Positions 10,601-30,000 of a stretch of DNA of 64,000 nt are shown here, one piece after another; position 1 is the stretch's first letter; the number at the start of each line of letters is the position of its first letter. Source of the DNA: Candidatus Poribacteria bacterium. Lineage in GTDB: Bacteria; Poribacteria; WGA-4E; UBA9662. The stretch lies in the NCBI GenBank assembly GCA_036339735.1, contig JAYZAL010000066.1, forward strand, positions 42,652-106,651. Reading direction: 5' to 3'. The position numbers and the translations under genes were made by a program. The notes below the pieces were generated by a model. The model worked only from the letters and a program-made list of their open reading frames with translations. It did not search any database and was not told the DNA's origin.

Positions 10601-11641
10601 CGTCCCCCAGAGATCCAAACCTCAGATTTACAGATTAATGGGCAGCCACTAATTGTTGATGCTAACCATATCGACTACCCATCAGTTGCAGGTCGTGGTG
10701 GTTCAGTTATCATAACAGCCAAGATAAAGGATAGTGACGGTTTAGGGGTAGACTTATCAACTTCCAGCATAAATGTTATCTCACCAAGTGGTGAGGCCAT
10801 AACCGGAGGCCTCACACAGAATGGAATTGATTTTCTGGTTTTTAGCTCATCGCAATTATTGCCCAATCAAGGATACTATAGGGTGGTGATTACAAGCGTC
10901 GGGTTAGATCCTCAGAACTTGGGTTTCCAGCCGACAAAGACAATTAGTACTGAATTCCTCTATGAGACATTACCACCGGTTGCAAGCCTCACTGATAGTG
11001 GTAAAGATAAGATTGAAGAAGGAGATGCCTTAACACTAAAAGGTGTAGCTTCAGATCCTGATAGTCAAGAAATACCAGCTTCTGGTGTTAGTCGTGTTGA
11101 GATTGTTGGTACAGGACCCGACGGAAAAGATATAGAACCGGCTGTAGCGGTGGACATGAGTAAAGGTGGTAGTAACCAATGGAGTAGCTGGAAAATTGAT
11201 TACTTACCACCTAAATCTGGTAGATATGTATTGAGTGTTCGAGTTTATGATAAAGCGGGTAATGCCGAAACTTATGAAAAGAAAGATGTTACTTTCACAG
11301 TTTCACTTGGATTCAAAGGTGAGACATTTTGTTGGCCTAATCCCGTATCGTTGTCTGCGTCATCTAGTGGTTCGGTGGCACATATATCTTTCGATCCTAA
11401 TATAGCCAGTAATGATACAGCTAATCTGACCCTTAGTGTTTACGATTTATCTGGTGACTTAGTCTATCGATATAAAGAACCTGATATAAAACCAGGTAGA
11501 CAAGATACTACACTCAAATGGAATTTAAGTAATTCTTCTGGAAGTAAGGTCGCACGTGGTATTTACCTTTTTCGACTGGAAATAGTAAATGGCGTGGATG
11601 AATCATCCAATACGGTTGGTAAAATCCTAGTAGTGGAATAA
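4631..11641 (+). CDS. Giant secreted Ig-repeat surface protein with FlgD-like Ig domains and a T9SS-type C-terminal sorting domain
   Basis: Signal peptide (SVYA/ADF); two FSPNGD(G) FlgD-Ig units; roughly 20 repeats with SG.D...S, DG[ST]xDGxY and DxAGN...DT.PP motifs; C-terminal WPNP..YDLSG..V..WNL.N..G.KVARGIYLFRL. The TTG start is uncertain. Confidence 0.8.
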   Translation: MGKRGLSCKDSQASISVQAPITGISLGVIWWYVLCSCISVYAADFAIPPQVLDDTTEIDAVFSPNGDNIQDKVVIVFEMDGTTGEYEIIIDVHGPGGVGKPDGQFNVDDDWSVLGKFGPGVTINDAPKRFRIEWDGRDSVAGTAKTVTDGNYQLRLQVDFFQNEILDPIQDSHSQIFPIIVDTESPQTSAKLERTGFSPNGDGNRDQLPINYVLGEQLSGLELLVPSHSSIQLSDLAAGNQIFNWNGQDGLGAVLPDESYNLQLRSLDLAGNESIVSLGQIWLDTKKPTISQIIPSPDAKVNTTVNELIATFESGTGSQIDFDNSIISLTHLDETIQNGTVSYENMTLRLTLENSLNLASENGLYTVNVQAVDLAGNREVSTFNLVFDTIQPSVLQIRLDEDNLRDRVHVNSSIGYIEADLSDNLSGLDLANSLLQLSKSGTVVDGVQLQIDTDTIRFQLSRALKSDGSDDGAYEILLTVFDTAGNSQVQTHPLVYDTTAPTLIGTNPPDLSQEKVRIDQAVATIELTFSDQNDNVVTSGLSFDETTVFVTKSDGTLVSTIKQVTSPSNLELRFSSSLTAGDYTLSFVASDKAGNQGKETNYPFYIDLRVPEIQFTPNNVPLATLEAVSAQLINYTGIGLDLVRSSLLVQDVSGNTIPSQKTEIVDQSLVWHIKNQLPKNGSQDGNYIATANFADFEGRTYTASSTLTVDTLPPTIDKTIPVDGSKVSVLKEVDVFLNDNLSGIDFSQTEVLLSSDGGTISTTKSDNGDNHIRLTFTDRHADGSADGLYTVGITAVDLAGNISGTQNVSFYLVTQKPEIISVTPSANSRINHLSTISASLLDLSGKGIDFDKTTITLSNSSGEVLGGTSLTHTDSQITLTGIELPTDGSADGIYTMLITLVDKLGSTAEKLQKIHYDTQPPVMRTSNQSFERLSTDQVSVSFEVVDSGSGIDITNSSLQLSNTDGTVVPGQFSYDGTANLSYKSAKLNASGIYMLQVVLTDQAGNSSIPYTFYYAYGVELAEVVEVTPRLTNNLEAVVVTFKSQQSLDFEQTILELIAPNQQVVSGVMTNDGQQLITFTPSIPLAVDGSQDGAYALTIQPSVMAIGRSDKKWSGEITFDTQPPEVKSISYITQPEQLAVDLQGTVVGLPTQFQLVLADTISGINGQQTTAQLISPTGQVSTTKSLKADIETNEYSINLSLNSQPKPDPSVNGDYVLEIIAVDLAGNSTTYSRSFTVMWAAATVSSTQPASFSKLNELQRVDVMLENMAETEIEKMATVRLVSPDNSEVAGRQEVVGTMVSWILDQPPPQDGTADGVYTIQSTVLKNDQVLLSENTTFLYDTKSPQVDSVVLQTNELTELIPSQVIMVTEPFSAIKIKIVDQLAGTDLTTSTVSLRTSEGLGIEQGLNNGTGEVLEVKNNGIDTITVEFAELKLTGIYTLVITPKDLAGNTGHPSLYQINLNLSKPKLTSIKISDRLGLVTAELANATAEYSTIEVVGPNGQVIGKTTEDNLKKQITWTPTNLAQDGTDDGVYTITVTPVNKQGISGQVLVKRFTYDTQEPEINNITAVDLTQPVSYLSNPTSQITATVSDLGPAGLDTEQQKITLIDSSGQTVSAFLTHDGRENLYFTFNPSFAKDGTNDGEYQLAINLIDKAGNKKDFTHSVFYDSSPPTLTDIIPGDGALLKGEINQVTVNLADKNGSGIDFSLTTISVTDTEGNSVSGQMSHDGKSKIIFKIDDLAPSGSYLVRVEVADRAGNQAIFESGFTNLSNLLVASSTTPVTRPIEKAFNRKKLDSVTVQLPKDVGIHLSTLHLVDSSGQMVMGYQDRNGSSDLQYQLQKPLKDDGSDDGTYTIVFTPISANGQRGQPQLMSFVHDTVEPEIDDGQIRLNVAQAGVNNSLVSIQLPVYDPSPSSGIDWLERPLPIVVTLESFAKENIAGRILVESDKEEVTFVLNKPLASDGSQDGKYKLKVDVTDQAGNDLNWIYDFDYDTRPPEIQTSDLQINGQPLIVDANHIDYPSVAGRGGSVIITAKIKDSDGLGVDLSTSSINVISPSGEAITGGLTQNGIDFLVFSSSQLLPNQGYYRVVITSVGLDPQNLGFQPTKTISTEFLYETLPPVASLTDSGKDKIEEGDALTLKGVASDPDSQEIPASGVSRVEIVGTGPDGKDIEPAVAVDMSKGGSNQWSSWKIDYLPPKSGRYVLSVRVYDKAGNAETYEKKDVTFTVSLGFKGETFCWPNPVSLSASSSGSVAHISFDPNIASNDTANLTLSVYDLSGDLVYRYKEPDIKPGRQDTTLKWNLSNSSGSKVARGIYLFRLEIVNGVDESSNTVGKILVVE

Positions 11642-13960: not shown

Positions 13961-16678
13961 TTAGTCTTGAATTACTGCATGTGCAGCCGCTAGTCTGGCG
14001 ATCGGTACGCGAAACGGAGAACAAGATACATAATCCATGTTAATGTTATGACAGAAGATAACTGAATCGGCATCACCACCGTGTTCACCACAAATTCCAA
14101 CTTTTAGATCAGGCCGGGTTTTGCGTCCACGCTCGATGCCAACTTCTATCAATTGGCCAACACCATCCTGATCTACTGTTTGGAATGGATCATTGTCTAG
14201 AACACCTTGTTCGAGATAATCTGGCAAGAAACCAGCAACGTCATCACGGCTAAAACCGAAACTCATTTGCGTAAGATCATTGGTACCAAAGGAGAAAAAT
14301 TCTGCAGCTTCAGCAACTTTATCCGCAGTTAAAGCTGCTCGGGGAATTTCGATCATAGTGCCAACCATATGATCAATCACATCGACATTATATTTCTCTC
14401 GCACTTCTTGATAGACTTGGTCTACAATTTTCTTTTGGTTCTTGAGTTCATTGACATGTCCTAGTACTGGGATCATGATTTCCGGATGGGTATCCTTTCC
14501 CTCTTGAGTCAACTCAACAGCGGATTCAAGAATCGCACGTACTTGTGCTTCAGTAATTTCCGGAAAGCTTATACCTAGACGGACACCACGATGTCCCATC
14601 ATGGGATTAGTTTCGTGCAGATCATCGCTACGCCGGTTAAATTCGGTAATGCTGACATTCAATTCACTTGCCAACTCTTGACGAGCATTTGCATCGTGTG
14701 GAACAAACTCATGTAGTGGAGGATCTAACAGTCGAATTGTGACAGGATATCCTGACATAACATCTAAAGTGGCTTTAATATCTGATTTCATATGCGGATA
14801 AAGTTCGTCGAGTGCAGCCCTACGTTCCACTTCATCTGATGACATAATCATCTTTCTCAGCTTAAATAATGGCTCATCGGAACCTTCACCATAGAACATG
14901 TGTTCTATGCGGAACAGCCCAATACCTTCAGCTCCAAATCCAATTGCTCTTTGAGCATCGGCTGGCGTGTCGGCATTGGTCCGAATTTTTAACCGCCTGA
15001 ATTCATCAGCGAAGTCCATCAGTTCGGTAAACTCGACATTAGTCTCTAAATCTGGGTCTATTAGATCGAGCTGCCCTTCGTAAACGTTACCTGTTGTTCC
15101 ATTTAGGGTAATCCACTCACCCTCTTTTAATATTTGTCCACCTATGGACATCTGCCGATTCTCAACATCAATTTCAATATCAGAACAACCAACGATGCAA
15201 CACTTACCCCAAGCGCGTGCCACTAGAGCTGCATGACTGGTCATTCCACCTTTAGCTGTTAGGACTGCTGACGCCGCATGCATTCCGTGCACGTCTTCTG
15301 GACTAGTTTCGTCCCGTACCAGAATAACTTTTTCACCATTTTCTTTACCTTGGGTTACAGCATCATCAGATGTGAAGACCAGTTTGCCATTGGCACCACC
15401 AGGTCCAGCAGGCAAACCCTTTGCCAATAATTCAGCCGTCCCTTCTGCGGCAGGATCCACCATAGGCAACAAAACCTGAACAAGTGAGTCTGCCGAGACT
15501 CTTTTTAAAGCTTCTTTTTTATCAATTAAACCTTCTTTACACATATCAACAGCCATTTTAATTGCTGCTGCACCTGTACGTTTACCTGTCCGGCACTGTA
15601 GCATCCATAGCTGGCCATCCTCAATTGTAAACTCAATATCCTGCATATCTCCATAGTGTTGTTCCAACTTTTCACGAAGATCGATCATTTCATCGTAGCA
15701 GGCTTTATGGCGGGACTCCAAAGTTTCGGAATCATCACTACTGTCATTTTTCATTAGGTCATTAACTGGTAGTGGAGTGCGCAAACCAGCAACCACGTCT
15801 TCTCCTTGGGCGTTTGCTAGCCATTCACCATAGAAAATATTCTCACCTGTGGCAGGATCGCGTGTAAAAGCAACACCTGTAGCGGAATTCTCGCCCATAT
15901 TACCAAACACCATAGCCTGAACGTTAACTGCCGTTCCCCATTCATCGGGAATCCCTTCGATCCGGCGATAGGCGATTGCACGCGTTGAATTCCAAGAATC
16001 GAATACGGCTCCAATAGCCCCCCAAATTTGCTCTTCGGCGGAATCTGGGAAAGGTGTTCCTAGGACTCTTTCGACTGTGGTTTTATACTGATCTACCAAA
16101 TCTTTCAAATCATCAGCAGTTAGATCCGTGTCGCCTTCAGCACCAAGAGCTTCTTTCTTAGCTTCTAGTAAATGTTCTAGTTGTAATCGAATTCCTCTTC
16201 CTTCTCTAGGCTCGATCCCTTTACTCTTTTCCATGACTACATCTGAATACATGGTAATAAGCCGACGGTAGGCATCGTAGGCGAAGCGCTCATTCCCGGT
16301 TTGTTTGATCAAACCACCAATCGTTTCCGTGGTTAACCCCACATTCAAGATAGTATCCATCATTCCTGGCATTGATTGTCGAGCCCCTGATCGAACCGAA
16401 AGTAAAAGAGGATTTTCGGTGGAACCATAAGCTCCACCACGAATATCACCCATCTTGACAATCGCAGCATTAACTTGTTCTTTTAGACCCTCGGGATAAT
16501 CACCATCTAATTCGTAGTAAATGTTACACAGATCAGTAGGAATTGTAAAACCGGGTGGGACAGGAAAACCAAGATTTGCCATTTCACAGAGGTTGGCTCC
16601 CTTACCCCCTAGCAGATTCCTCATTGTTGAATCACCTTCGGCAGTCCCCCCGCCAAAGGAATAGACGTATTTAGACAT
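13961..16678 (-). CDS. ppdK: Pyruvate, phosphate dikinase
   Basis: LLGGKGANL, LLSVRSGARQSMPGMMDT, GGMTSHAA (phospho-His), FFSFGTNDLTQM and GICGEHGGD. Confidence 0.97.
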   Translation of the reverse strand: MSKYVYSFGGGTAEGDSTMRNLLGGKGANLCEMANLGFPVPPGFTIPTDLCNIYYELDGDYPEGLKEQVNAAIVKMGDIRGGAYGSTENPLLLSVRSGARQSMPGMMDTILNVGLTTETIGGLIKQTGNERFAYDAYRRLITMYSDVVMEKSKGIEPREGRGIRLQLEHLLEAKKEALGAEGDTDLTADDLKDLVDQYKTTVERVLGTPFPDSAEEQIWGAIGAVFDSWNSTRAIAYRRIEGIPDEWGTAVNVQAMVFGNMGENSATGVAFTRDPATGENIFYGEWLANAQGEDVVAGLRTPLPVNDLMKNDSSDDSETLESRHKACYDEMIDLREKLEQHYGDMQDIEFTIEDGQLWMLQCRTGKRTGAAAIKMAVDMCKEGLIDKKEALKRVSADSLVQVLLPMVDPAAEGTAELLAKGLPAGPGGANGKLVFTSDDAVTQGKENGEKVILVRDETSPEDVHGMHAASAVLTAKGGMTSHAALVARAWGKCCIVGCSDIEIDVENRQMSIGGQILKEGEWITLNGTTGNVYEGQLDLIDPDLETNVEFTELMDFADEFRRLKIRTNADTPADAQRAIGFGAEGIGLFRIEHMFYGEGSDEPLFKLRKMIMSSDEVERRAALDELYPHMKSDIKATLDVMSGYPVTIRLLDPPLHEFVPHDANARQELASELNVSITEFNRRSDDLHETNPMMGHRGVRLGISFPEITEAQVRAILESAVELTQEGKDTHPEIMIPVLGHVNELKNQKKIVDQVYQEVREKYNVDVIDHMVGTMIEIPRAALTADKVAEAAEFFSFGTNDLTQMSFGFSRDDVAGFLPDYLEQGVLDNDPFQTVDQDGVGQLIEVGIERGRKTRPDLKVGICGEHGGDADSVIFCHNINMDYVSCSPFRVPIARLAAAHAVIQD

Positions 16679-16849: not shown

Positions 16850-18208
16850 TTATATCGAGTAAATCATTTTACTTGCTTCCTCGTATTCAGCTTGAAGTGG
16901 ATCAGTTGATAAAAATAACTTTTGGTAAGGTTCATAAAGTTGGATATAACTCCAGTTTACACCACAAGTAATTTTCTTCTCATTGCAGAGTTGCACAAAA
17001 CGTCCCCGGAATTTAGCCCGAGTGGTTTCAGGTGGAAAACGCATGGCACGTTCAATATTTTTGTCTTTACAAATTCGATGAACTAGACTTTCTCTTTCCA
17101 ACTTATAGTATAATCCCTGATCGGTACGAACGTTGTGATACTGTAAGTCAAGCATCGCAACTTTCGCCGAATCCCAGTTCAAATTTCTTGTTTTTACATA
17201 CTTATCAATCAGTTTCTTTTTGATAACCCAGTCAAGTTCTCTGTCTAATTGCATTGGGTCATCGGACAAATACTGCAAGACATATTGCCAGTATTCCATT
17301 GTCTGGTCAGTGATAAAATCAGATTCCTCTTGCTCTAAATAGCGCTTGGCTGTGTAAAAGTATTCCCACTGTAATTCAACCGCAGATAAACGCTTTCCAT
17401 TTTCGAGCTCGATTTTACGCGTGCAAGTTATATCATCTGAAATTTGTTGAATGGCTCGAACGGCATTTTTCAAATTGAAACTTTGCTCAATAAAACCATC
17501 TTCTATCATCCTCAAAATGATGTTGGTGGTTGCTATCTTCAAAAAGTTGGTGAATTCTGACATATTTGAGTCACCAACAATAACATGTAAACGACGATAT
17601 TTTTCTCGATCTGCGTGAGGCTCATCTCTTGTATTTATAATGCCACGCGCAGTTGTAGTAGCGATTGAGATCTCCTCACGAATGTGCTGAGCCCTCTGTG
17701 AGATAGAATAACGACCATCTTTTTCAAGTTTAATCTTACCTGCGCCACTAAAGACCTGACGTGTGACAAAAAACGGTATTAACTTCGATGCCAATTGGCG
17801 AAAAGTAACTCGTCTGTCCATCAGATAATTTTCGTGGCAACCAAACGTATTGCCGGGAGTATCTGTGTTGTTTTTGAAAACCGAAATAACTCCATCAAAC
17901 CCATCACTTTTCATACGGCGTTCGGCCGAACGGGCTAATTGAGCCAGAATTCGTTCACCTGCTTTATCATGAGCAACAAGGTCAATTACATCATCACATT
18001 CAGGTGTAGCATATTCCGGATGGCAACCTATATCTTGGTAAAATCTAGCTCCATTTTCGAGAAAAACATCTGGATACATTCGACCATGAATGATTTCACG
18101 GAACAAATACATAACAGTATTTTGAATTGACATAGGCTTTGAATTCGGGTGCTTAGGAGTACAGATGATTCCGTATTCTGTTTCAATCCCAAATATACGT
18201 CTTTTCAT
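16850..18208 (-). CDS. pafA: Pup-protein ligase PafA
   Basis: RRIFGIETEYG, FLENGARFYQDIGCHPEYATPECD, KNNTD..GNTFGCHENY, INTRDEPHAD and RRLHVIVGDSNMSE. It lacks the Dop loop and is the last gene of the operon. Confidence 0.93.
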   Translation of the reverse strand: MKRRIFGIETEYGIICTPKHPNSKPMSIQNTVMYLFREIIHGRMYPDVFLENGARFYQDIGCHPEYATPECDDVIDLVAHDKAGERILAQLARSAERRMKSDGFDGVISVFKNNTDTPGNTFGCHENYLMDRRVTFRQLASKLIPFFVTRQVFSGAGKIKLEKDGRYSISQRAQHIREEISIATTTARGIINTRDEPHADREKYRRLHVIVGDSNMSEFTNFLKIATTNIILRMIEDGFIEQSFNLKNAVRAIQQISDDITCTRKIELENGKRLSAVELQWEYFYTAKRYLEQEESDFITDQTMEYWQYVLQYLSDDPMQLDRELDWVIKKKLIDKYVKTRNLNWDSAKVAMLDLQYHNVRTDQGLYYKLERESLVHRICKDKNIERAMRFPPETTRAKFRGRFVQLCNEKKITCGVNWSYIQLYEPYQKLFLSTDPLQAEYEEASKMIYSI

Positions 18209-18912
18209 GACAAAATTTCGGTTATATCCTCAACGGACAAGCGAGAAAATTTGCGCCGATTTCTTTTTTGGTCCAAGACTGCGACCTCTAGCGTCGATGG
18301 GTTAATCGCATAACGATCTACCTCGTCGACGCTATCTTCAATAGAAATGAAGGTTTCTGTAGCCAATTTTACAGCAGCTGGTAAGCTAAGTTCAGCTTGA
18401 TAGGTATCTTCCAGAATTTGAGAAATTTCATCGGACCTTCCACCAATTACGGCGTAGTCTTTTTCTTCCCAAAATGTACCATCAAAAGAAATGTGGTAAA
18501 TATTATTCGCTTGATTGCCTGTTTCAGCAACCTCACAAACCAATAACTCGACTTCTAAAGGTTTAGAATCCAACTGCCAAAATACACCACCGATATATTG
18601 GGAATAAACATTAGTCAACCACTTAGCCGTAACATCTTGCCTTGTGTAAGTTAGCCCTTTGATCTCAGCGTCGCGAATACCAACAAAACGGAGTGTTTCA
18701 TACTCTCGATAAAGGCCGGTCGCAGCAAACCCAATCCGGTCATAGATCTCCGATATTTTAAAAACCGTTGACAATGGATTTTCCGCGACTAAAACGATTC
18801 CTTCTGCATACTCCAGAACAATTACTTCTTTGGCCTGATCAATACCTTTATGGACAAAATCTGATTTATCCTGCATGATCTGATCTGGAGAAACATAGTA
18901 CGGTGATGCCAT
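18205..18912 (-). CDS. prcA: 20S proteasome alpha subunit
   Basis: N-terminal PYYVSPDQIMQDK..F..KGI, KISEIYDRI, KPLEVE and LEVAVLD..R.RRKF.R, as in actinobacterial PrcA. Confidence 0.93.
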   Translation of the reverse strand: MASPYYVSPDQIMQDKSDFVHKGIDQAKEVIVLEYAEGIVLVAENPLSTVFKISEIYDRIGFAATGLYREYETLRFVGIRDAEIKGLTYTRQDVTAKWLTNVYSQYIGGVFWQLDSKPLEVELLVCEVAETGNQANNIYHISFDGTFWEEKDYAVIGGRSDEISQILEDTYQAELSLPAAVKLATETFISIEDSVDEVDRYAINPSTLEVAVLDQKRNRRKFSRLSVEDITEILS

Positions 18913-18979
18913 AAAAACAAATTCCTCGCAAGCTATCCTAGATTTCTTTAAGTCTCAATCTTCAGTAAGAGATTAATTG

Positions 18980-19813
18980 CTACTCACTTTCGGAAAGCGA
19001 GCTTTTATTTTCGCTAATCCTTTGAAAGAGATCAGTGTAAAAGGATTTTATTATTTCTGGGGAGACTTCGGTAATGCCTGATTGATCGATAATACGAACA
19101 ATCGGATAAATGTTACGAAGGAAATCTGGACCTGCGGTCCCAACATCTTCGTCTGCAGCATCCCATAGAGCATGGAGAACAGCATGAAGGGCTTCCCTTG
19201 ACTTCATTTCAGGACGATACAATTTTTTAAGAGCTGACCGAGCATCCTTGCCGCCTGACCCCTCAGCATAGTAATCTACCTGTTCGTAACGCCCTCCGGT
19301 AATATCATATTTGAAAATACGCCCTATATTCTCTTTTAAATCATAGCCGGCAAAGATTGGTATGACAATCAAACCCTGAAGTGCCAAGGGTAAATTGGAT
19401 TTCAGCATGTTTGATAAATAACTGGCTTTTCCCTCTAGACTTAGGTGAGATCCTTCGACTTTCTCGTAGAACTCCACCTGAGTTTGAAAGAGTTTAGCCA
19501 TATCAATACATGGACCAGCAACACCTGCAATAGCAATAGCCGAATGTGTATCAACCTCATATACTTTTTGGACCCTACGTTCACCAATTTGGAATCCTCC
19601 AGTTGCTTGACGATCTCCTGCTACAACGACACCGTCAGCGTAAATTAGAGCTAGGATCGTTGTGCCTTCTAAGAATTGTCCCACCTCGCCACGAGGCTGA
19701 GTAGATTCTATAAACTGAGCGTTAGTAGAAAAAGATTGTAACAAGCTAGGTTGTCGACACTTCAGAATTTGAAGAAGATCATTTGTTATGTATTCTGACT
19801 GATCGGGCGCCAC
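18980..19813 (-). CDS. prcB: 20S proteasome beta subunit with a 50-aa propeptide
   Basis: G/TTILAL..DGVVVAGDR.AT.G with the catalytic Thr at residue 51; GSG and DAADED..T.GPD motifs. The GTG start overlaps the pup stop (TAGTG). Confidence 0.94.
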   Translation of the reverse strand: MAPDQSEYITNDLLQILKCRQPSLLQSFSTNAQFIESTQPRGEVGQFLEGTTILALIYADGVVVAGDRQATGGFQIGERRVQKVYEVDTHSAIAIAGVAGPCIDMAKLFQTQVEFYEKVEGSHLSLEGKASYLSNMLKSNLPLALQGLIVIPIFAGYDLKENIGRIFKYDITGGRYEQVDYYAEGSGGKDARSALKKLYRPEMKSREALHAVLHALWDAADEDVGTAGPDFLRNIYPIVRIIDQSGITEVSPEIIKSFYTDLFQRISENKSSLSESE

Positions 19814-20034
19814 TACTCTCCTCCCCGCTGAACGTAACTTTCTATAAATTCCTCATATTCTTCTTCTAAGATTTCATCAATTTCGTCCAGAAGCCGATCT
19901 AAATCATCTTTGATTTCTTCACCTTTTTCCGTAACCTCTTTATTTGGTTGAACAGACTCAGTGTCTTGAGTTCCTTCTTGCTCTGCACTTTGCGTGTTTT
20001 TTTCTTCTTGTTCTTTATTCTTATCAGGCGACAC
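19813..20034 (-). CDS. pup: Prokaryotic ubiquitin-like protein Pup (C-terminal GGE), 73 aa
   Basis: GTG at 20034 follows an AGGAGGT Shine-Dalgarno. The protein has an acidic disordered N-terminus and ends LDRLLDEIDEILEEEYEEFIESYVQRGGE. It lies between dop and prcB. Confidence 0.93.
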   Translation of the reverse strand: MSPDKNKEQEEKNTQSAEQEGTQDTESVQPNKEVTEKGEEIKDDLDRLLDEIDEILEEEYEEFIESYVQRGGE

Positions 20035-20053
20035 CTTGATACCTCCTATTTGG

Positions 20054-21595
20054 TTAAGATGAATCACTAACGGGCTCAACAGGATCATCAGAAGAAGAAA
20101 GTTTCTCGACCAATTGGCTGACACTATTACAATTGAGCAAATCACCAACTAAGGCTTTATTACCAAAATGCGGTCGATCCATAAAGATTTTATTCAACGA
20201 CGAACCTTCAGTAGAAAAGACAATCGAATTCCAACTTACGCTGTGTATATCCGCACTAAACTTTCTTAAGCATGTGCCACGAAAATAAGCTCGAGTATCA
20301 GTTGGTGGACAGGTCATCGCGTGAATGATTTCTTCTTGGTCAACAACTGAAATCACTTGATTGTTTTTGACCAAATGATGGTATAAACCTCTATCGGAAC
20401 GTAAGTCGTGATACTGTAAGTCGAGCATCTTAATACGCGAGTCTTTCCAATTTAGATTGTGTCTTTCTATATATGCCGACATCAGTCGGAGCTTGATCAC
20501 CCAATCTAAATGCTTGTCTAACTGCATAGGATTACTTTCTAATTGATTTAAGACAAAATCCCATTTAGATAAAATATCTAGGTCTGTAGAGCTTAGTTCG
20601 TCTGTGGAAAAGCTTCGCCGGACTAAATTTAGATAGTCCCGTTGTAACTCAATTGGCGATTTTTCTTCGCCTGATTCTAGTCTCAGTTTTTTCTGACAGG
20701 TTAAGTCTCTAGAAACCTTTCTAATGTCACTAACAGGATCCATCAACTTGAACTGACACTTCAACGCACCAATCTGAATCAGTCTCAAAACCAGCGAGGT
20801 AATCCCAATTTTTAGGTATATTGAAAATTCCGACATGTTGGAATCGCCAACAATCACATGAAGGCGACGGTAGATTTCATTATTGGCGTGTGGTTCATCT
20901 CTTGTATTGATAATTGGTCGAGAAACCATCGTACTTAGCCCAACTTCGGTCTCAAAGAAATCGGCTCGTTGGGAAATCTGAAAATCAACTGGTTCAGCGC
21001 CATTTTCAAAACCGATCTTTCCACTTCCTGCAATAATTTGCCGTGTGACAAAGAAAGGTGTTAGTGCATCCGTAAAATCCTGAAACTCAATTTCTCTTGG
21101 TACAAGATAATTTTCGTGGCTACCATAACTATGTCCTTTGTAGTCGGTATTATTTTTATAAATGAGGATTTCTTGTTCTGCTGGTAGGGTAGCTTCAGCC
21201 TTTTTACGTGACGAATCAACAATTAGATCCCCTGCTTTTTCATATATGACTACATCTCTTGCCGTAGTACATTCTGGTGTGCAGTATTCTGGGTGGGCAT
21301 GATCAACATAATATCTACCACCGTTGATAAGAATATCGTTAATAACAGTGTTATCTTCGTCTTTTGGTACGCCATTCCCACCTTCATAAACAAAGCCCCG
21401 GGCATCAGTTAGAGGTGACTCTTGATCATAATCCCAATAAATGTCATTCTCAGTTGACTCGTCAGCCGATTCTACATCTTTTTGACTATAAGAACTTACG
21501 ACCAACATAGAGGCCGCAACAGGATCTTGTTCCTTGACGTTTCTCACGGAAATCCCATATTCAGTTTCTGTGCCAATTATTGAAGGGAAACTCAT
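20054..21595 (-). CDS. dop: Pup deamidase/depupylase Dop
   Basis: ATG at 21595 follows the arc stop. Motifs: IIGTETEYGI, Dop-loop WDYDQESPLTDARGF, YVDHAHPEYCTPE, KNNTD.KG.SYGSHENY, SQRADFFE.EVGL and PP.DTRAYFRG.C. Confidence 0.93.
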   Translation of the reverse strand: MSFPSIIGTETEYGISVRNVKEQDPVAASMLVVSSYSQKDVESADESTENDIYWDYDQESPLTDARGFVYEGGNGVPKDEDNTVINDILINGGRYYVDHAHPEYCTPECTTARDVVIYEKAGDLIVDSSRKKAEATLPAEQEILIYKNNTDYKGHSYGSHENYLVPREIEFQDFTDALTPFFVTRQIIAGSGKIGFENGAEPVDFQISQRADFFETEVGLSTMVSRPIINTRDEPHANNEIYRRLHVIVGDSNMSEFSIYLKIGITSLVLRLIQIGALKCQFKLMDPVSDIRKVSRDLTCQKKLRLESGEEKSPIELQRDYLNLVRRSFSTDELSSTDLDILSKWDFVLNQLESNPMQLDKHLDWVIKLRLMSAYIERHNLNWKDSRIKMLDLQYHDLRSDRGLYHHLVKNNQVISVVDQEEIIHAMTCPPTDTRAYFRGTCLRKFSADIHSVSWNSIVFSTEGSSLNKIFMDRPHFGNKALVGDLLNCNSVSQLVEKLSSSDDPVEPVSDSS

Positions 21596-21596
21596 T

Positions 21597-23393
21597 TTAC
21601 AAGTAAGCTCCACCTTTAACTGTCTTAATTTCTTTTTTCCTTTTTTCTGGCTCATCAGTCATGGCACGAATATTTACAATACGTTCTCCTTTACGTCCGG
21701 AAATTTTAGCCCAATCGTCAGGATTAGTGGTATTTGGCAAGTCCTCATTTTCCTTATATTCTTCCCGAATTGCTTGAACCAGATCATCGAGTTGAAGTCC
21801 TTTTTTACCCGATTCTTTTGATGAATCCTTTATTAATCTCTTAACTGCAGACTTTTTGGCACGGTCCACAATGTTACGAATCATAGCCCCACTAACAAAA
21901 TCTTTGAAATATAACATCTCTCGTTCACCACGAGCATAAGTAACTTCAATGAACTTGTTATCATCAGTCGTGGTATACATCTCGTTTATGGCAGCGAGGA
22001 TTACACTGTTTAACGCTTTTTTTTCATCACCATCATATTCAGCGAGTAACTCAGAATCAATTGGTATCCCGGCACACAAGTATTTGGAAAAAATATCTAC
22101 AGCGTCGTCTTCAGTTGGCCGATCCACCTTGATTTTGACATCTAAGCGTCCAGGTCTTAGCACCGCTGGGTCGAGGAGATCTTGTCGATTGCTAGCACCA
22201 ATTACTATGACGTCCCGCAACCCTTCAATCCCGTCAATTTCAGCCAAAAAGGTAGGGACAACGGTTGATTCCATGTCTGATGAAATACCCATACCGCGGG
22301 ACCTGAACAACGAATCCATTTCATCAAAAAATATAACAACAGGAACACCTTCTTTCGATTTGTTTCGAGCTTTCTGGAATACCTCTCGGATTTTACGTTC
22401 AGTTTCCCCAACATATTTGTTGAGCAACTCTGGGCCTTTGACATTGATAAAGTACCCCCGTACGTCCTCACGGCCTGTTTTCTCTCGAATACGCTTGGCC
22501 AAGTTGTTCGCGATTGCACTTGCCATCATAGTTTTACCACACCCTGGTGGCCCATAAAGTAGGATGCCCTTGGGTGGTGAAAGTTCAAACTCCTTATACT
22601 CATCAGGGTAAAGATAAGGAGTCTCAATCGCATCTCGAATGTGTTCTATCTGTTGGCTTTGACCGCCAATGTCATTGAAACTGATGTCAGGGACCTCTTG
22701 CAGCATTAAATCTTGTGCTTCGTACATCGGTAATTTTTCCATGAGTATGCCACTCACCCGATTCAATAAAACGGAATCCCCAAACCTGAGATCATCCGTA
22801 TTTACCAGCGCGGAAACTTCGACTACACGCTCTTCATCTGCCCTCAGTCCAATCAATACTCGCTGCCTGTCAATGACTTTTTTCACTTTGACTACATCAC
22901 CTCTAGAATCGAAGTGGCAAGTACCCACAACATTAAACGCGCCATTAAGAATTACTTCTTGGCCACGGCGTAATTGACTAACCTGAATTTCGGGATCCAC
23001 GTTGACACGTTGTTTCTTTCCTAACATGTCGATATCAACAGTACCATCCTTGTTCTCAGAAAGAAAAACCCCATAGTGATTTGGTGGAGCACTCAGCTGT
23101 TCGACCTTTCCCTTCAGGTTTTGCAGATGTTCTTTGGTTTCTTGAAGAGCATTTGATAACTTCCGGTTCCGCCGGTGAGCCGACATTAATTCACGAGTCA
23201 TCTCATACAAACGCAATTCAGTCTCATCCGTTGGCGGAGAATTTATTTGCTCACGCAGACTATTAATTTCATTCTGAAGGGACTCAATCTGGTATTCTTG
23301 TTGTCGAACAATATCTTCATCCGTATAGACTTCGTCAACAATAGGAGTTGGCATCGTTTCTGTTTTGTTTGACTTGTTGTCAGGTCTAGGCAT
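21597..23393 (-). CDS. arc: Proteasome-associated AAA ATPase ARC/Mpa
   Basis: N-terminal coiled coil ending PP, two OB-like domains, Walker A GPPGCGKT, KGPELLNKYVGETER, FFDEMD, RPGRLD, EDLPNTTNPDDWAKISG and C-terminal GAYL. Confidence 0.95.
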   Translation of the reverse strand: MPRPDNKSNKTETMPTPIVDEVYTDEDIVRQQEYQIESLQNEINSLREQINSPPTDETELRLYEMTRELMSAHRRNRKLSNALQETKEHLQNLKGKVEQLSAPPNHYGVFLSENKDGTVDIDMLGKKQRVNVDPEIQVSQLRRGQEVILNGAFNVVGTCHFDSRGDVVKVKKVIDRQRVLIGLRADEERVVEVSALVNTDDLRFGDSVLLNRVSGILMEKLPMYEAQDLMLQEVPDISFNDIGGQSQQIEHIRDAIETPYLYPDEYKEFELSPPKGILLYGPPGCGKTMMASAIANNLAKRIREKTGREDVRGYFINVKGPELLNKYVGETERKIREVFQKARNKSKEGVPVVIFFDEMDSLFRSRGMGISSDMESTVVPTFLAEIDGIEGLRDVIVIGASNRQDLLDPAVLRPGRLDVKIKVDRPTEDDAVDIFSKYLCAGIPIDSELLAEYDGDEKKALNSVILAAINEMYTTTDDNKFIEVTYARGEREMLYFKDFVSGAMIRNIVDRAKKSAVKRLIKDSSKESGKKGLQLDDLVQAIREEYKENEDLPNTTNPDDWAKISGRKGERIVNIRAMTDEPEKRKKEIKTVKGGAYL

Positions 23394-23648: not shown

Positions 23649-23677
23649 ATTATAGCATTCGACATAATGAGTGTCAA
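23649..23677 (-). promoter_or_regulatory. Consensus sigma70 promoter of the proteasome operon
   Basis: Minus strand TTGACA (23677-23672), 17 nt spacer, TATAAT (23654-23649) with an extended TG. The predicted TSS is ~23642, about 250 nt upstream of arc. Confidence 0.8.
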
Positions 23678-23762: not shown

Positions 23763-24401
23763 GTGCCATCATCAGATCTTAGTTTTTATGATATAAACAA
23801 TTATCTCAGTTCAGTCACACCTGCTAGAGATCCGATTTTAACCGAAATGGAGATTTACGGCCAAGAACACAATTTTCCAATTGTTGGGCCAACAGCGGGC
23901 TCTTTTCTGCATCAAATGGTACTTTTGACAAATCCCAAACGAATTTTTGAAATGGGGTCAGGGTTTGGCTATTCCGCTTATTGGATGGCAAAAGCACTAA
24001 ATGATCCAGAGGCAAAGATTATTTGTACTGAGGGAGCCACGAAAAATGCGACGCGTGCAACTTCTTACTTTGAAAGGGGTGGCATAGCTGACAAAATCGA
24101 CTTCAAAATCGGAAACGCACTGGAAATTATCGAAGAAACCACAGGTTTTTTTGATATCATCTACAATGATATCGATAAACATGAATACCCAATAGCCTTC
24201 CAAAAAGCTATACCTCGACTGAGAAAGGGCGGGATGTTTATTACTGACAATTTGATTTGGAACGGACGCGTGATGGGCAAAGACAACGAACCTAGTACAG
24301 TTGGTGTTCGGGAACTCACTAGGCTTCTTTACGAGTCGGATCAATTCTTCACGACCATTGTTCCACTACGTGATGGCCTAGCTGTAGCAATCAAATTATA
24401 G
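23763..24401 (+). CDS. SAM-dependent O-methyltransferase (Methyltransf_3 / CCoAOMT-like)
   Basis: PIVGP..G.FL, RIFEMGSGFGYSA, FDIIYNDIDK..YP, DNLIW.G.V and IVPLRDGL. Confidence 0.9.
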   Translation: MPSSDLSFYDINNYLSSVTPARDPILTEMEIYGQEHNFPIVGPTAGSFLHQMVLLTNPKRIFEMGSGFGYSAYWMAKALNDPEAKIICTEGATKNATRATSYFERGGIADKIDFKIGNALEIIEETTGFFDIIYNDIDKHEYPIAFQKAIPRLRKGGMFITDNLIWNGRVMGKDNEPSTVGVRELTRLLYESDQFFTTIVPLRDGLAVAIKL

Positions 24402-24619: not shown

Positions 24620-27064
24620 ATGATAAGTTCACAATACCCATTTTTAAACCGAATTCAAAGAGAATACAAGGCTGCCGCTGCCCACGTGTTCTTACTCCAT
24701 CACAACGTTCACGATTTACTCTGGGATCGTCGCTACGGGCTTCTGCCGACTCAGTATTTCTTGATGGAGCAACTAAATATCATCGGCTGTGACATCGTTC
24801 TTGGTTACATTCCCTCGCAAGGTATTATCTGGCCTCATATTGATCATTGGCGACAAATACAACACGCCTTGGGTTTAGAGGTAGAAAAGATAGAGTGGGA
24901 CGATGGACCTCCAGATCCGTCAAAGCCAATTGGTCAATTTCGCCAGGATGGTACTTTTATCGCAGAGCAACTGGGTCTAGTACGGGTTCAGGCTAAGATA
25001 GACTCGACCTATGGAAAGATATATTCAAACCCGAGAACCGTGTATGTGGGAGATACCAAGCGAGATATTCATCGAATAGAAATTCAACCTAGTAGTCAGC
25101 GACATATTTCAGCTGGCAAGCATATTCGTTTTCAAGCTATAGCTTTTGATCAAATGGGAGAGAGAATTGGTATTCAGAACGCCAACTGGCAGGTAGAAGG
25201 AAATATTGGTCAAATTTCTAGAGACGGTGTTTTTGTAGCACAAAAAGGCGGTGAAGGATTCATTAAACTTCAAATAGGGAACCTTAACGCTAAAACCAAC
25301 CGAATGGTTGTTCATCCTAGCGCAGCAGTCGAAATACATTTAGACCCACCAAAAGACCCATTAGAAATTCGAAAGCCTCACCGTTTCTCTGTATCAGGCC
25401 GAGATGTAGGTGGTAATACTTTTAAGCTGCAAAAGGATATCGAGTTTGAAATTGTACCAACCCCTGAAGACAACACTCCCTATCACCCCATTAATCAACA
25501 CGGATTTCATCGCGATAAAATCCATGAAGACCCCTTGATTAGCGATCGGTTACCTCCAGGAAAAGAGCTAAGCCAAAAACTGAGAGAACTCTTTGAGCAA
25601 AATCATTTTAAGGTTGGTTTAGTAGTTTACCAACTGGAAAAAATTGCCCCAAACTCTGACTTGCTAGCATTTGATGAAGAGTACCGATTTTTCGTGGATT
25701 CAATCCATCAATGGTCAGCAGATCTTGAAATGCGGTTCCGTAAACATATTATTCTCATGGCAACTCAGAATTTAGCTGAGGTTCATCCTATGCTTTCTAA
25801 CAATATCGAGATTCCTGTAGTTGAATTGCCATTTCCCGATCTCGAAGAACGAAAGGAGTTAACTAAGCACATAGAAAGCCTATCACGTCTAAGAGCAGAA
25901 AACCAACGCTATCAGGGCGAGTTAATCCACCAAGTTCGTTTGGCAGATGATTACTCACATGATCAGTTTGCTCGAGATACAACTGGCTTAAAATTGTTTG
26001 GTCTACACGACCTGGCTTTGAGAGCTGAGGAAGAGGGAATTCCGATTTCACCCGAATTCGTAGCAGAACATCGCCGACAGAGTGTGTCGGTACATACGTC
26101 TGACATTTTGGAAGTTATGCCTACTCCTTATGATTTGTCTATCGTTGGTGGGCATTCCCACGTGGGGCGAATTCTTGAAAATATCATAACTGCTATACAC
26201 CAGAAAGACCTAAAAAGAATACCTCACGGGGTTTTATTACTTGGTCCATCTGGGACAGGCAAAACCATGATTGCCCAAATGTTGGCACGATACAGCGAAT
26301 TGCCGTTTCTGCGACTCAAAAATCCACGAGAATGGGTGAGAACTGGGGCTACTGGGGATGCTAAAATTTATGAGAAAAAACTTACAGTGGCCTTAAACTT
26401 CATTTCAGGAATGCTGCCAGCAATTGTTTTTATTGATGATATTGACCAAATTAGTGGACTCAGTGAAAGAGCTGGTAAACACAAAGACAACGATAGTATG
26501 TTGCCAGCAGAGTTAGTGAATTTGATTGCTGACCCTACAAAACATGGCCAGATTTTGTGGGTTGGCGCTAGTAATCGGCCGGATCTTTTGGACCCACTTT
26601 TTCGACGGCAAGGACTCTTTGAAGAAAGAATTATCCTCCTGCGACCAACTGACGGAGAAAGAGCAGATATCTTACGTAAATTGTATCACAAGCACCAAAT
26701 TAAACATCAAAATATAGATTTTGACGAAATGGATGAATACACAAGAAAAATGACGGGTGCTGACATTGAACAAGTTGTCCGGCGAAGCTACACTTTTGCT
26801 AAAGCAGATGGGCTAGAAATTGTGAACAACGAATATCTACGAAAAGCAATCTCAGACTTTGTACCACTTTATTCTGATCAAATTAACGAAGCTATTGGGT
26901 TGTTGGCAATGCGCGAGGCAACCTCACGTTCTATGCTTCCACAACGATTACCCTACGAATTGAGAAAATTTGTAGCTGAAGAAGGGAATTATGCTGAATG
27001 GGGTATCGATAAATCTCAAATTAACCAACGCCTCAGAGAATTAGGGGACGTCTTCAGTTTATAA
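24620..27064 (+). CDS. AAA+ family protein with a degenerate N-terminal domain, an inserted Ig-like (Big_2-type) module and a divergent ATPase domain
   Basis: FLLHHNVHDL N-terminal motif; Ig-like segment at ~24890-25460; Walker A GPSGTGKT; Walker B FIDDID; GASNRPDLLDP; MTGADIE. Confidence 0.8.
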   Translation: MISSQYPFLNRIQREYKAAAAHVFLLHHNVHDLLWDRRYGLLPTQYFLMEQLNIIGCDIVLGYIPSQGIIWPHIDHWRQIQHALGLEVEKIEWDDGPPDPSKPIGQFRQDGTFIAEQLGLVRVQAKIDSTYGKIYSNPRTVYVGDTKRDIHRIEIQPSSQRHISAGKHIRFQAIAFDQMGERIGIQNANWQVEGNIGQISRDGVFVAQKGGEGFIKLQIGNLNAKTNRMVVHPSAAVEIHLDPPKDPLEIRKPHRFSVSGRDVGGNTFKLQKDIEFEIVPTPEDNTPYHPINQHGFHRDKIHEDPLISDRLPPGKELSQKLRELFEQNHFKVGLVVYQLEKIAPNSDLLAFDEEYRFFVDSIHQWSADLEMRFRKHIILMATQNLAEVHPMLSNNIEIPVVELPFPDLEERKELTKHIESLSRLRAENQRYQGELIHQVRLADDYSHDQFARDTTGLKLFGLHDLALRAEEEGIPISPEFVAEHRRQSVSVHTSDILEVMPTPYDLSIVGGHSHVGRILENIITAIHQKDLKRIPHGVLLLGPSGTGKTMIAQMLARYSELPFLRLKNPREWVRTGATGDAKIYEKKLTVALNFISGMLPAIVFIDDIDQISGLSERAGKHKDNDSMLPAELVNLIADPTKHGQILWVGASNRPDLLDPLFRRQGLFEERIILLRPTDGERADILRKLYHKHQIKHQNIDFDEMDEYTRKMTGADIEQVVRRSYTFAKADGLEIVNNEYLRKAISDFVPLYSDQINEAIGLLAMREATSRSMLPQRLPYELRKFVAEEGNYAEWGIDKSQINQRLRELGDVFSL

Positions 27065-27090: not shown

Positions 27091-30000
27091 ATGAACCTAA
27101 AACATGCATTGCTAACCGGTATTGCTCTCCTATTAGGATTTTTATTTTACCCTCGTTCAACGACCAACTACTCAATTGACCAATCCCTAATCTCACCTGC
27201 ACGCACATTGGATAGTGAACCATTGCGCCTGACGGAACTGGTACGTAGCAACCCACCGTATTCAACTTTTGATCTAGGTTACATTTACAAAATTGATACG
27301 GCTCAGGTTGTATTTGGTAGCCCTGAGGATAGTGGCCCACGACAATTCGATATACTGGTTAAAAATCAGTTAAATGATCGTTACAAGAGGATCTATTCCT
27401 TCATTGGAAATTCGCATGAGTATGGTTACCCGCTTCAATCTTTTCAAACCCAGACAGAAGCTCGTTGGGTCCAAGTTGTCATCAATGACTGGTTCACCAA
27501 TAAGCCACAATTACAAAAAGATAGATTTAGAGTTGGTACACGGTATAAGCGACATGGGCCGATCAAAGCTATAACAGCCACTCATAACACTGAATTCCTA
27601 TTTCATCTAACCGATCTTTTGCCCAATACAAAATGGGCTGCAGCTGATGTGATCATTAATAACAAGGAAATAGAAAATGCATCAGTGGCCCCTGAATTTC
27701 GTACACCAACCTTAAATGGCCAATTTGCAACAGTCGCGGTAAAAATTGACCTTGGCCGACGTCAGAACATCTATGGTACTCGTATTACTACAGCTGGGTC
27801 AGGTAATAACCTGAAGCGATATAGTTTGGAGATTGGTGGAAGATCAGCGATCACTCGAGGAGATACTGAGATCAATGATTTTATCCCTTACTACACATCC
27901 GAAATACTTCCAAATGAAGTAGTAAAAGATACTTATCTTCCGGAGACGAGCCAGCGCGGGCGTTTTATAAAGCTGAAAATAGACGTCAACGATTGGTATG
28001 GTGAATATGCTGAAGTTAGCAATTTTGAGGTGTTTACTGACGAATATCGAATACTTTCTAGCCAATTATCTTCCGACCCTCAATACCGGAACTTCGAAGA
28101 TTACACCACAAAGCGAGTAGAATATGAGAATTTGGGAGCTAATAATAACCAGTACGCACCGCATCTCAAGCAAGGGTTTGCATATGATAAAGAAACTGGT
28201 GATTTTCAAAACCGTTATTTATTACCAAAAACAGTTTCAGAACCCGACGCTCCAAATTCTATAGCTTCAGGAGGTTTAGTTGATCAGCGCAGTTTCGCAT
28301 ATCATTACGACACAGTTGAAATCCAATTTGGTGCCATGCGCCCGATGAATCCGAGAATGTTATACTGGGTACAAGTATCTTATCTTCAAAATAGTGATGG
28401 AAAACGAATCCAAAATTTATTGGCGGACCAATTCCTTCTCCACTCTGCACTAGAAATCCCTACTAATGCAGCAAAAACATATACTTTTCAAATTCCGACT
28501 CAAGCTTATGCCAGTGGGCCAACTGCGGGTAAAGTTGCTCTTCGTTTCAATCGATTAGCTGGTGCAAATGCGGTTGTCTCAACTGTCGCATTACTCGAGT
28601 CCTCACCTTTACGTGATGATAATTTGGCTAATAAAAAAGATGGTCAAAAAACTCACTTACTAACAAATCAAAAGCAGGGGCGATCTGTTCGAACAGATAA
28701 TACTATCAAAATAGACGGTTTGGTAAATGACTGGCACTTGTTATACTCCCTAGTACCAATGTTTGCGGGTCAACGAGATAAACCATTACCAACTGAATAC
28801 CAATCCAGAAAAGAATCACCAGTTCACTTATATACGCAATGGAATGATAATAATCTTTATATTTTGCTCAACTTTAATCAGCCAGACGATGAAAAAAATC
28901 GGCTTATTAACCAGCATCATCGACTGCACTTATTCATCGATACGCAGCGCACTGCCTCTCCGGGCATGTACACACCAACGGATCATCATTTTACATTTGA
29001 TTTATCTAATTTTACTGAGCCTGAACCAGAAGTCTATGTTTCGCAAGTTCATCATCACTTGGATGCTATTCCAGCTACTATCAATAACTACGAAGATATC
29101 TCAGTTGCCGTGCGATTAATTCCTTCCACTAATTCTGACTCAAACATTAAAGAAGGTTATACAATTGAGATCCAGTTGCCAAAGCAACTAGTTTTAAATC
29201 GGTTCAAAACCGGCGTTGGCTATTTATTTGGCCTAAACTATATTCTGAATCGAACAGATTTAGAAAAAAAGAGGAACTTATCAAGCTTCGCTTTTACCTC
29301 CTCTGATTCAGATAGTCCACCTCAAAACTGGTTTCCCGTTGAAATGGTTAGCCGCGTCAGTGGTGAGGTAGATATTATGAGTCAAACGGGTCTAGAACCA
29401 ATTGAAAAACTGGTTGTTGGCGACACGATTTCCTTATGTGTTTGGGATGCAGATCGAAATAACGACCCCACTTTGGAAGAATCAATTACTGTTCAATTGA
29501 AAAATAACCGCAGCGAAGTGTCGTCGACGCTGAGACTACCAGAAGTTGATTATGCATCTTTTATCGATGATAACCAAAAACACAATGGAAGTCCTAATAG
29601 TTCGTTCTTCGCTGCCAAAATACTCACTGAGTTTGATGAATTCCCCCCCTCCAATAAAGCTAATATACTCACGACATCACTCCTTAAGGTCCGTGGTGGT
29701 GATGAAATTGTACTATCTTATACTGATCCCTATTTTGGTTACAACCAAAGAGACAAGTTGATTCAGAAAACAGCTCTCGTAGAAAAGGGCCACGATGGAC
29801 GGGTTTACTTTGGTACATTTAATGGTGAAGTATTGGGGCAAATATCTATTGGGTCTGAACTTTTTGTGTTCATTGAAGATGATGATTTACAGGAAAATTT
29901 AGTAAAACCGGTGTCGATTGAACTAAATATACTAGCACCAAAATCTTCTTATCGGTCGCTACAGAAAGAAATAGTAACAGTCTCCTTGGTTGAAACCGAG

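Follow-up and report, generated by a model that had tools for sequence, protein, structure and literature searches.

The stretch of DNA analysed here (the window), 64,000 nucleotides (nt) from a genome of Candidatus Poribacteria, codes on its minus strand for a cluster of six genes in the order arc, dop, pup, prcB, prcA and pafA, whose span of 16850-23393 runs exactly from the pafA stop to the arc start. This cluster is a real, intact and native Pup-proteasome operon of a known kind; it is already recognised by the NCBIfam equivalog models and, taken alone, adds a further member to a known family, from a phylum that has been little studied. The new point is not the Pup operon alone but the class-wide pairing of Pup with a second tagging system, UBact, whose operon lies elsewhere in the same genome. 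The reading favoured here, with a probability of around 80%, is that this is a native and functional Pup-proteasome operon of pelagic Poribacteria, which would be one of two parallel systems.

The Pup-proteasome operon of the window

A first-pass annotation of this DNA, made from the sequence alone, had proposed a complete Pup-proteasome operon in actinobacterial gene order, and this is upheld by the NCBIfam and Pfam matches of the products (Table 1) and by their intact catalytic residues, as read from the translations. The arc product combines two OB domains (Pfam Prot_ATP_ID_OB_N and Prot_ATP_ID_OB_C) with an AAA domain in which both Walker A (GPPGCGKT) and Walker B are present, and its C-terminal tail, ..GGAYL, has a penultimate aromatic residue. 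Pfam Pup_ligase is matched by two operon proteins, and Dop and PafA both carry the N-terminal GxExE motif and the active-site Asp. For dop, the likelier start is the ATG at 21595, which lies 1 nt past the arc stop and yields a product of 513 residues; the TIGR03688 match begins at residue 26 of the long open reading frame (ORF), and the Dop proteins of relatives begin near M21. The enzyme further displays a Dop-type N-terminal insertion and the active-site stretch DHAHPEY, common to the solved Acidothermus Dop. PrcB has a propeptide of 50 residues, beyond which Thr1, Asp17 and Lys33 correspond to T51, D67 and K83. PafA is near-neutral (isoelectric point (pI) 7.98, net charge +2) and matches the PDB PafA entries 4B0T/4BJR at E values of 1e-99 to 1e-100.

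The tag gene begins with a GTG codon seven bases 3' of an AGGAGG, and its product ends in ..YVQRGGE. It passes TIGR03687 and PF05639 and has no match to the UBact model NF033388 even at E<=1, its RGGE end differing from the R-[ST]-G-[EQ] of UBact; thus, the modifier is, as had been stated, a true GGE Pup. The junctions are also as tight or overlapping as described, with pup and prcB overlapping by 1 nt and prcA and pafA by 4 nt, and with gaps of 19 nt between dop and pup and 67 nt between prcB and prcA. Likewise, the composition of the operon is like that of its flanks (GC content 0.39-0.43, as against 0.38-0.45 for the whole window).

The Poribacteria-like host that had been proposed fits both the phylum sample described below, which shares both operons, and the 79 closest PafA loci from species-representative genomes (66-96% PafA identity), 74 of which are titled Candidatus Poribacteria. 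The best of these matches, at 96% identity, is in a marine metagenome-assembled genome (MAG), and the public sequencing runs containing the window DNA are labelled marine or seawater metagenomes. The window's own genome is a MAG of 107 contigs, 92% complete with an estimated contamination of 2.4%. The first-pass annotation had also placed LptD in the window, but no LptD/OstA match was obtained among the 31 window ORFs scanned with Pfam, and the Pfam LptD model, which is positive on the Escherichia coli and Caulobacter controls, recovers nothing from the whole genome. As LptD was not found, it was dropped as evidence for a diderm host and BamA used in its place. With BamA on contig C77 (TIGR03303, 415.5 bits against a cut-off of 297) and a BamD/YfiO-like TPR protein in the window at 43239-44474, an outer membrane in this host remains likely.

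Table 1. Positions of the operon genes and associated features, numbered along the window except where a contig is named (aa, amino acids; model cut-offs in parentheses)
Feature	Position	Strand	Evidence and remarks
arc/mpa, proteasomal AAA+ unfoldase	21597..23393	-	598 aa; TIGR03689 683.9 bits (504.75)
dop, depupylase/deamidase	20054..21655	-	long ORF 533 aa; TIGR03688 575.7 bits (492.3)
pup, tag	19813..20034	-	73 aa; TIGR03687 46.8 bits (41.45); Pfam PF05639 60.8 (27)
prcB, 20S proteasome beta subunit	18980..19813	-	277 aa; TIGR03690 271.4 bits (191.9)
prcA, 20S proteasome alpha subunit	18205..18912	-	235 aa; TIGR03691 258.1 bits (139.05)
pafA, Pup ligase	16850..18208	-	452 aa; TIGR03686 535.4 bits (551.3); Dop score 425.4
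second operon, outside the window	contig C73, L084:6061-12801	+	AAA ATPase, Dop-like, UBact tag, PrcB-like, PrcA-like, PafA-like
ppdK, pyruvate, phosphate dikinase	13961..16678	-	TIGR01828 1245.5 bits; not part of the tagging machinery
candidate sigma-70-type promoter	23649..23677	-	TTGACA, 17 nt, TG-TATAAT; 12/12 consensus match only; 256 nt upstream of the arc ATG

Pup and UBact together across a class of Poribacteria

A search of the window's own genome for the Pup-ligase family returns four matches, not two, with the extra pair on contig C73. The genes of this second operon (operon 2, the window operon being operon 1) stand in the same order as those of the window, with urease genes upstream and recG downstream. 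Its tag, of 70 residues and with the end ..RYRQRTGQ, reaches 72.6 bits with the UBact equivalog NF033388 (cut-off 35), while the Dop-like gene of the operon scores 509 with the Dop model (cut-off 492). Its other products score below the NCBIfam cut-offs: ARC at 465 vs 505, PrcB at 173 vs 192, PrcA at 72 vs 139 and PafA at 346 vs 551. Thr1, Asp17 and Lys33 are intact in the beta subunit, Walker A and B in the ATPase, and GxExE along with the active-site Asp in both ligase-family enzymes. The paralogues of the two operons are 38% (ARC), 42% (Dop), 37% (PrcB), 25% (PrcA) and 36% (PafA) identical, and the two tags of this genome have no detectable BLAST similarity. Accordingly, the earlier opposition of Pup here to UBact in other Gram-negative lineages holds for the window tag, which is Pup, and fails for the genome, which carries both, as do 140 of 151 sampled relatives.

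These relatives constitute an even sample of the phylum, with 148 of the 151 genomes belonging to the same class and with the tag genes scored by model. Pup was found in 144 of them and UBact likewise in 144; beyond the genomes with both, four have only Pup, four only UBact, and three neither. The last three alone come from other classes of the phylum, and any ligase-family gene is absent from them as well. For the one-system genomes, the ligase count agrees with the tags in all seven examined of the eight (G151 was left out), and the bearers of the Pup operon are spread over seven family-level groups. Both systems thus occur in one genome, and do so class-wide in Poribacteria. Elsewhere, UBact was detected in none of 61 genomes of the Myxococcota-labelled phylum, i.e., the lineage with the closest foreign Pup operon, and over the cut-off in none of 61 genomes of the Actinomycetota phylum, while Pup was detected in 0/61 genomes of the Armatimonadota phylum and 0/61 of the Verrucomicrobiota phylum. 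Closed genomes of the control groups have one ligase pair each; in the Myxococcota-labelled lineage there are two closed genomes, each with one standard pair and one of them also with a remote, partial third match.

A fragmented and slightly contaminated MAG with the two operons on different contigs might raise the suspicion that co-occurrence is a binning artefact, or a chimeric contig, with either C73 or the window coming from another organism. This is exceedingly improbable, because five of five closed Poribacteria assemblies carry both operons, with both ligase pairs on a single chromosome at distances of 0.1-1.3 Mb. Moreover, the ligase and PrcB trees group the MAG's own operon-2 genes with their counterparts from closed genomes, and the window operon with its neighbour ppdK is syntenic in 57 of the 79 related loci.

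The ligase family shows a few further variations. Two genomes of one Poribacteria genus (G051 and G144), with no detectable UBact gene in either, code for a single long ligase-family ORF of 652-661 aa besides the Pup pair (G051:C195:6667-7995 and G144:C272:3017-4381). A closed chromosome of ~3.76 Mb (G002) has a third ligase-family gene in the form of two ORFs (L293:3386-4751 and 4921-5722) that correspond to the first and second halves of the model, i.e., a broken copy or a split gene. A tandem duplicate directly behind pafA is seen in three of the 79 Poribacteria loci, e.g., L023:7976-9377 and 9343-10903, where the second copy groups with the neighbouring pafA in a quick tree. Beyond the phylum, a Rokubacteria MAG (L171/G284) has a Pup-model match of 63.8 bits at C11:76216-76308. 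In a Chloroflexota MAG (L168), a small ORF on the minus strand (3611-3785), with the end PGGE and an upstream part like neither Pup nor UBact, adjoins two very long-branched ligase-family genes.

Ancestry, selection and genomic setting

The ligase family was analysed by maximum likelihood (LG+C20 PMSF) with 72 proteins, drawn from both Poribacteria operons, Myxococcota-labelled MAGs, Actinomycetota including Acidimicrobiia and Nitriliruptoria, Rokubacteria, Armatimonadota, Abditibacteriota, Bipolaricaulota, Fraserbacteria and Latescibacteria (two database proteins only). Seven of 79 rows had been dropped: L168 (two), L207 (two), L241 and L235 for long branches, and L023_9343 as a tandem duplicate. 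A PrcB tree has 32 rows, one of 33 having been dropped as L294 is the same record as L221. The first-pass annotation had envisaged trees with Actinobacteria, Nitrospirota and UBact loci; those for Dop/PafA and PrcB now contain Actinomycetota and UBact loci and give Poribacteria clades of their own.

The ligase-family proteins fall into four clades, namely Dop-Pup (support 99/94), PafA-Pup (100/100), Dop-UBact (98/90) and PafA-UBact (100/100), with the window dop in the first and the window pafA in the second. Within each of the four, Poribacteria form one clade (100 and at least 98 in each case) outside monophyletic Actinomycetota. Of the operon-1 clades, that of Dop is sister to monophyletic Actinomycetota (99/95) and that of PafA to a group of Myxococcota, Rokubacteria and Actinomycetota (84/82); the operon-2 PafA clade is sister to Latescibacteria (100/96). 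The PrcB tree is split between Pup-type and UBact-type proteins at 100/100, with Poribacteria on both sides and the window PrcB in the Pup-type clade. By these patterns the two operons are old, separate lineages of one machine rather than the outcome of a recent duplication. The PafA of the above Rokubacteria MAG is sister to the Actinomycetota PafA (99/99).

The free ligase tree takes the form ((DopU,PafAU),(DopP,PafAP)), where U and P denote the UBact and Pup types, with 93/94 on the central branch (97 in a quick tree). If this grouping of Dop and PafA by system is true, the ligase and the tag-removing enzyme arose twice; however, independent duplications are not claimed, as the classical tree with all PafA together is not rejected (log-likelihood 12.66 lower, p of 0.223 in the AU test).

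The position of Poribacteria in these trees bears on whether the Pup operon might be a recent horizontal acquisition from Actinobacteria, with the UBact operon as the sole native system. The gene order is indeed actinobacterial, and the operon-1 proteins score far above those of operon 2 on the TIGRFAM models. The TIGRFAM models for these genes are mostly built on actinobacterial sequences. More generally, Hecht et al. 2020 (PMC7947786) propose an actinobacterial origin of pupylation, followed by spread through transfer. Nevertheless, a recent transfer is very unlikely for the operon under consideration: for each of Dop, PafA and PrcB, the Poribacteria proteins are a single clade that lies outside Actinomycetota, even with Acidimicrobiia and Nitriliruptoria included; the operon is present across the above-mentioned family-level groups with a composition like its flanks; and the tag end R-G-G-[EQ] is shared with the Myxococcota-labelled lineage, whereas 29/29 Actinomycetota tags have K-G-G-[EQ]. 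Because the Poribacteria clades lie outside monophyletic Actinomycetota, the Pup operon does not appear to have been recently borrowed from a crown actinobacterium, while an ancient transfer into the class ancestor is possible.

Between two closed genomes, the ratio of nonsynonymous to synonymous substitution rates (dN/dS) ranges from 0.026 to 0.125 over the six genes of operon 1 and from 0.019 to 0.072 over the six of operon 2, as compared with 0.045 for ppdK and >1 for shadow ORFs in other frames, these ratios being rough with dS near saturation. Both operons are hence under purifying selection. The order arc-dop-prcB-prcA-pafA is kept in 72 of the 79 related loci, with the other seven partial and mostly ending at a contig end. 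The earlier suggestion of a long-resident system is in keeping with this conservation and selection, as well as with the spread across the sample and the clades outside Actinomycetota. It is also against this background that one may consider a further alternative, in which one of the systems is decaying or has a non-degradative use such as regulation-only tagging. The sub-threshold scores of the operon-2 ARC, PrcB, PrcA and PafA, and the few genomes that have lost one system, might be read in this way. We give this little credence, as the catalytic residues are intact in both beta subunits, both ATPases and all four ligase-family enzymes, the operon-2 dN/dS is 0.02-0.07, and low scores are to be expected from models that derive chiefly from Pup-type sequences.

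With respect to expression, contigs from RNA libraries (four runs of four studies) cover the window operon at 95-100% identity and bridge the ppdK/pafA, pafA/prcA, prcA/prcB, prcB/pup and dop/arc junctions. Metatranscriptome contigs over the arc start terminate at 23626 and 23580, on the downstream side of the -10 box, a slight indication in favour of the candidate promoter. The scan behind it returned 33 promoter-like sites vs 24.7 expected and 11 terminator-like sites vs 8.0 expected, and only the 12/12 match was retained. Indels at 23455, 23512 and 23525 in the arc 5' leader recur in the RNA-library contigs of several runs and are probably strain variants. A comparison of RNA depth between ppdK and the operon was discarded, as contig depth cannot rank expression.

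As had been noted earlier, pafA is followed not by pafB/pafC but by ppdK: no pafBC-like gene is adjacent to the operon, and the only WYL-domain ORF of the genome is on another contig. In the 57 syntenic loci ppdK lies 3' of pafA on the same strand; in the window, the scan gave no terminator-like site between the two on the minus strand, and an RNA-library contig (16383-17071) spans the gap between them. Thus, ppdK may be co-transcribed with the proteasome operon. This linkage of a central-carbon enzyme to a proteasome operon is conserved. On the other side, a plus-strand O-methyltransferase (23763-24401) and an 814-aa protein with a single AAA domain (24620-27064, also plus) are divergent from the operon promoter region, and this neighbourhood recurs in only two of the 79 related loci.

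Other plus-strand genes of the window include those for a 2336-aa Ig-repeat protein (4631-11641) with a C-terminal CHU_C sorting domain (type IX secretion), a 2048-aa protein (27091-33237) with CBM9 and F5/8 type C domains, and two paralogous FG-GAP/ASPIC proteins (34224-35918 and 52999-54693).

Two proposed tagging channels and their known relatives

The actinobacterial pupylation mechanism, as set out in PMC3511204 and PMC8223512, can be used as a template for the Poribacteria operon. On this template, PafA would use ATP to join the C-terminal Glu of the 73-residue acidic Pup to target lysines, and the ARC/Mpa hexamer would catch Pup on its N-terminal coiled coils and unfold the target. ARC would then dock by its aromatic C-terminal tail (..AYL), in the manner of the Mpa docking motif GQYL with its penultimate aromatic residue (described in a passage of PMC8223512), onto the PrcA/PrcB 20S core, which would degrade the target. 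Dop would remove Pup and, in relatives with a GGQ-ended Pup, would first deamidate the tag. The window Pup should need no such deamidation, because its C terminus is already Glu; among the related Poribacteria loci, 52 tags end in RGGQ and 20 in RGGE. The UBact operon codes for a Dop-like enzyme, a PafA-like enzyme, an ATPase whose tail is of the non-aromatic form ..V-I/V, and 20S subunits, all of them distinct from those of the Pup operon.

The two systems differ in the parts that would confer specificity. Pup has a pI of 4.05 and a net charge of -18, while UBact has a pI of 10.46 and a net charge of +8. Across phyla, the net charge of the ligase ranges from -9 to +9 in 27 Pup-type PafA proteins and from -10 to -34 in 18 of the UBact type. 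Similarly, the ATPase tails are ..[YF]L in the Pup type and ..V[IV], with no aromatic residue, in the UBact type (Poribacteria, Armatimonadota, Bipolaricaulota and Fraserbacteria). The coiled-coil charge of the two ATPases was also considered and discarded, as the region could be placed only imprecisely on the distant UBact-type ATPases. For the UBact-type ligase with UBact, the predicted complex has a score of 0.81 vs 0.00 for the best of three controls, a mark reached by 116 of 157 solved complexes and two of 215 mismatched pairs; the runs agree on at least 65% of contacts, with a partner pLDDT (predicted local distance difference test) of 50-52. In this model, the last 28 residues of UBact lie in the ligase groove and active site. 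Based on the opposite tag charges, the complementary ligase charges, the differing ATPase tails and the predicted ligase-UBact complex, we infer two separate channels of tagging and degradation, made specific by charge complementarity within each tag-ligase pair and by the different tails with which the ATPases dock onto the 20S cores. The fuller proposition, namely that two orthogonal ubiquitin-like degradation codes operate in each Poribacteria cell, one with an acidic Pup and the other with a basic UBact, and that they have no ligase, tag-removing enzyme, unfoldase or 20S core in common, is one for which we see an even chance.

Conversely, the two systems might be redundant or in cross-talk, such that tags, ligases, ATPases and 20S cores are interchangeable and one operon is a back-up copy rather than a second code. 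Both tags share the tail Y-x-Q-R-x-G-[EQ], which enters the ligase active site, making cross-ligation conceivable. The Dop enzymes of both types are equally acidic, and the Dop of the two systems are therefore not separated by charge. Further, the 25-42% identity between paralogues is compatible with mixed assemblies. Even so, we hold redundancy to be rather unlikely. Simple redundancy would rarely last so long as to leave both tag systems in most of the sampled genomes, with every gene at a dN/dS of 0.02-0.13, and the recognition parts of the tags are oppositely charged and without BLAST similarity, with ligase charges and ATPase tails that differ by system across phyla.

The common tag tail and the alike Dop charges belong with several other points that count against two functional, parallel systems. 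Each mechanistic step is carried over from the actinobacterial system, and both Poribacteria systems are known from genes alone. The window PafA is 16 bits below the TIGR03686 equivalog cut-off, its best match still being PafA rather than Dop. The RNA-library contigs concern operon 1 only, may reflect DNA carry-over and cannot show a single transcript. The complex prediction may pass by its likeness to the solved PafA-Pup structure, and it is silent on cross-reactivity. Of the 148 same-class genomes, eight showed a single system; completeness is 73-91% for some of the eight, but G069, at 96%, and G048 have just the Pup pair. Finally, the survey for double systems is confined to Poribacteria and samples of four other phyla.

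If two parallel tag-proteasome pathways are indeed present, Poribacteria would be the first bacterial lineage known to have them, and Pup and UBact would be functionally distinct systems that diverged before these phyla radiated, and not one system spelt differently from lineage to lineage. It is an open argument whether UBact is simply another name for Pup, and the pairing of the two in one lineage makes it testable; their coexistence under purifying selection would imply different jobs. In this regard, the two tags should offer a clean proteomic read-out, as the remnants expected on lysine after trypsin digestion, computed from standard residue masses, are GGE of ~243.09 Da for Pup and TGE of ~287.11 Da for UBact. 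The two systems also furnish a natural pair of possibly orthogonal tag-ligase systems, which would make them interesting for PUP-IT-like proximity labelling.

The UBact-proteasome system of Gram-negative phyla was reportedly described by Lehmann, Udasin, Livneh and Ciechanover in 2017 in Biochemical and Biophysical Research Communications (BBRC), and that paper or its summaries are said to list Poribacteria among the UBact-bearing candidate phyla. In the titles, abstracts and passages of the literature covered, which did not extend to the 2017 paper, no paper links Poribacteria to pupylation or UBact or reports both in one genome; the Poribacteria passages seen of PMC7203096 concern taxonomy only. 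Published reports of Pup beyond Actinobacteria go back to 2008 (Iyer et al., PMC2588565). In the 2020 phylogeny (PMC7947786), only the best Dop and PafA match per genome was kept, and a second system would therefore be hidden in it.

Among known systems, that of Actinobacteria (Mycobacterium, Corynebacterium, Rhodococcus) has the same six components in the same order, with matches to the window operon at the equivalog level for five of the six and PafA near the cut-off. The two are further alike in the GG[EQ] end of Pup, in the penultimate aromatic residue of the ATPase tail (as in the GQYL described in the review PMC8223512) and in belonging to the same deep clades. They differ in that the Poribacteria host has an outer membrane, as judged from BamA, and a tag with R-G-G-E in place of the actinobacterial K-G-G-[EQ]; in that pafA directly follows prcA and is succeeded by ppdK instead of pafBC; and in the coexistence of a UBact system. 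The Pup operons of the Myxococcota-labelled MAGs (L085-L164) resemble the window operon in their non-actinobacterial outer-membrane host, gene order and tag end Q-R-G-G-[EQ], and their PafA is the closest relative outside Poribacteria at ~50% identity; however, no UBact was detected in the 61 sampled genomes of that lineage, and their ATPase tail is ..GQYL as against ..GAYL in the window operon. Two 20S gene sets in one bacterium also have a parallel in Rhodococcus erythropolis, which is said to have two proteasome operons that are close paralogues of one Pup-type system with one kind of tag, whereas the Poribacteria sets are only 25-42% identical and go with different tag families. The UBact system of Gram-negative phyla (NF033388), of which the second operon of the window's genome is a member, shares homologous machinery and gene order with the window operon; it is set apart by a basic tag, that of the window being acidic and without an NF033388 match, and by enzymes of the other deep clade.

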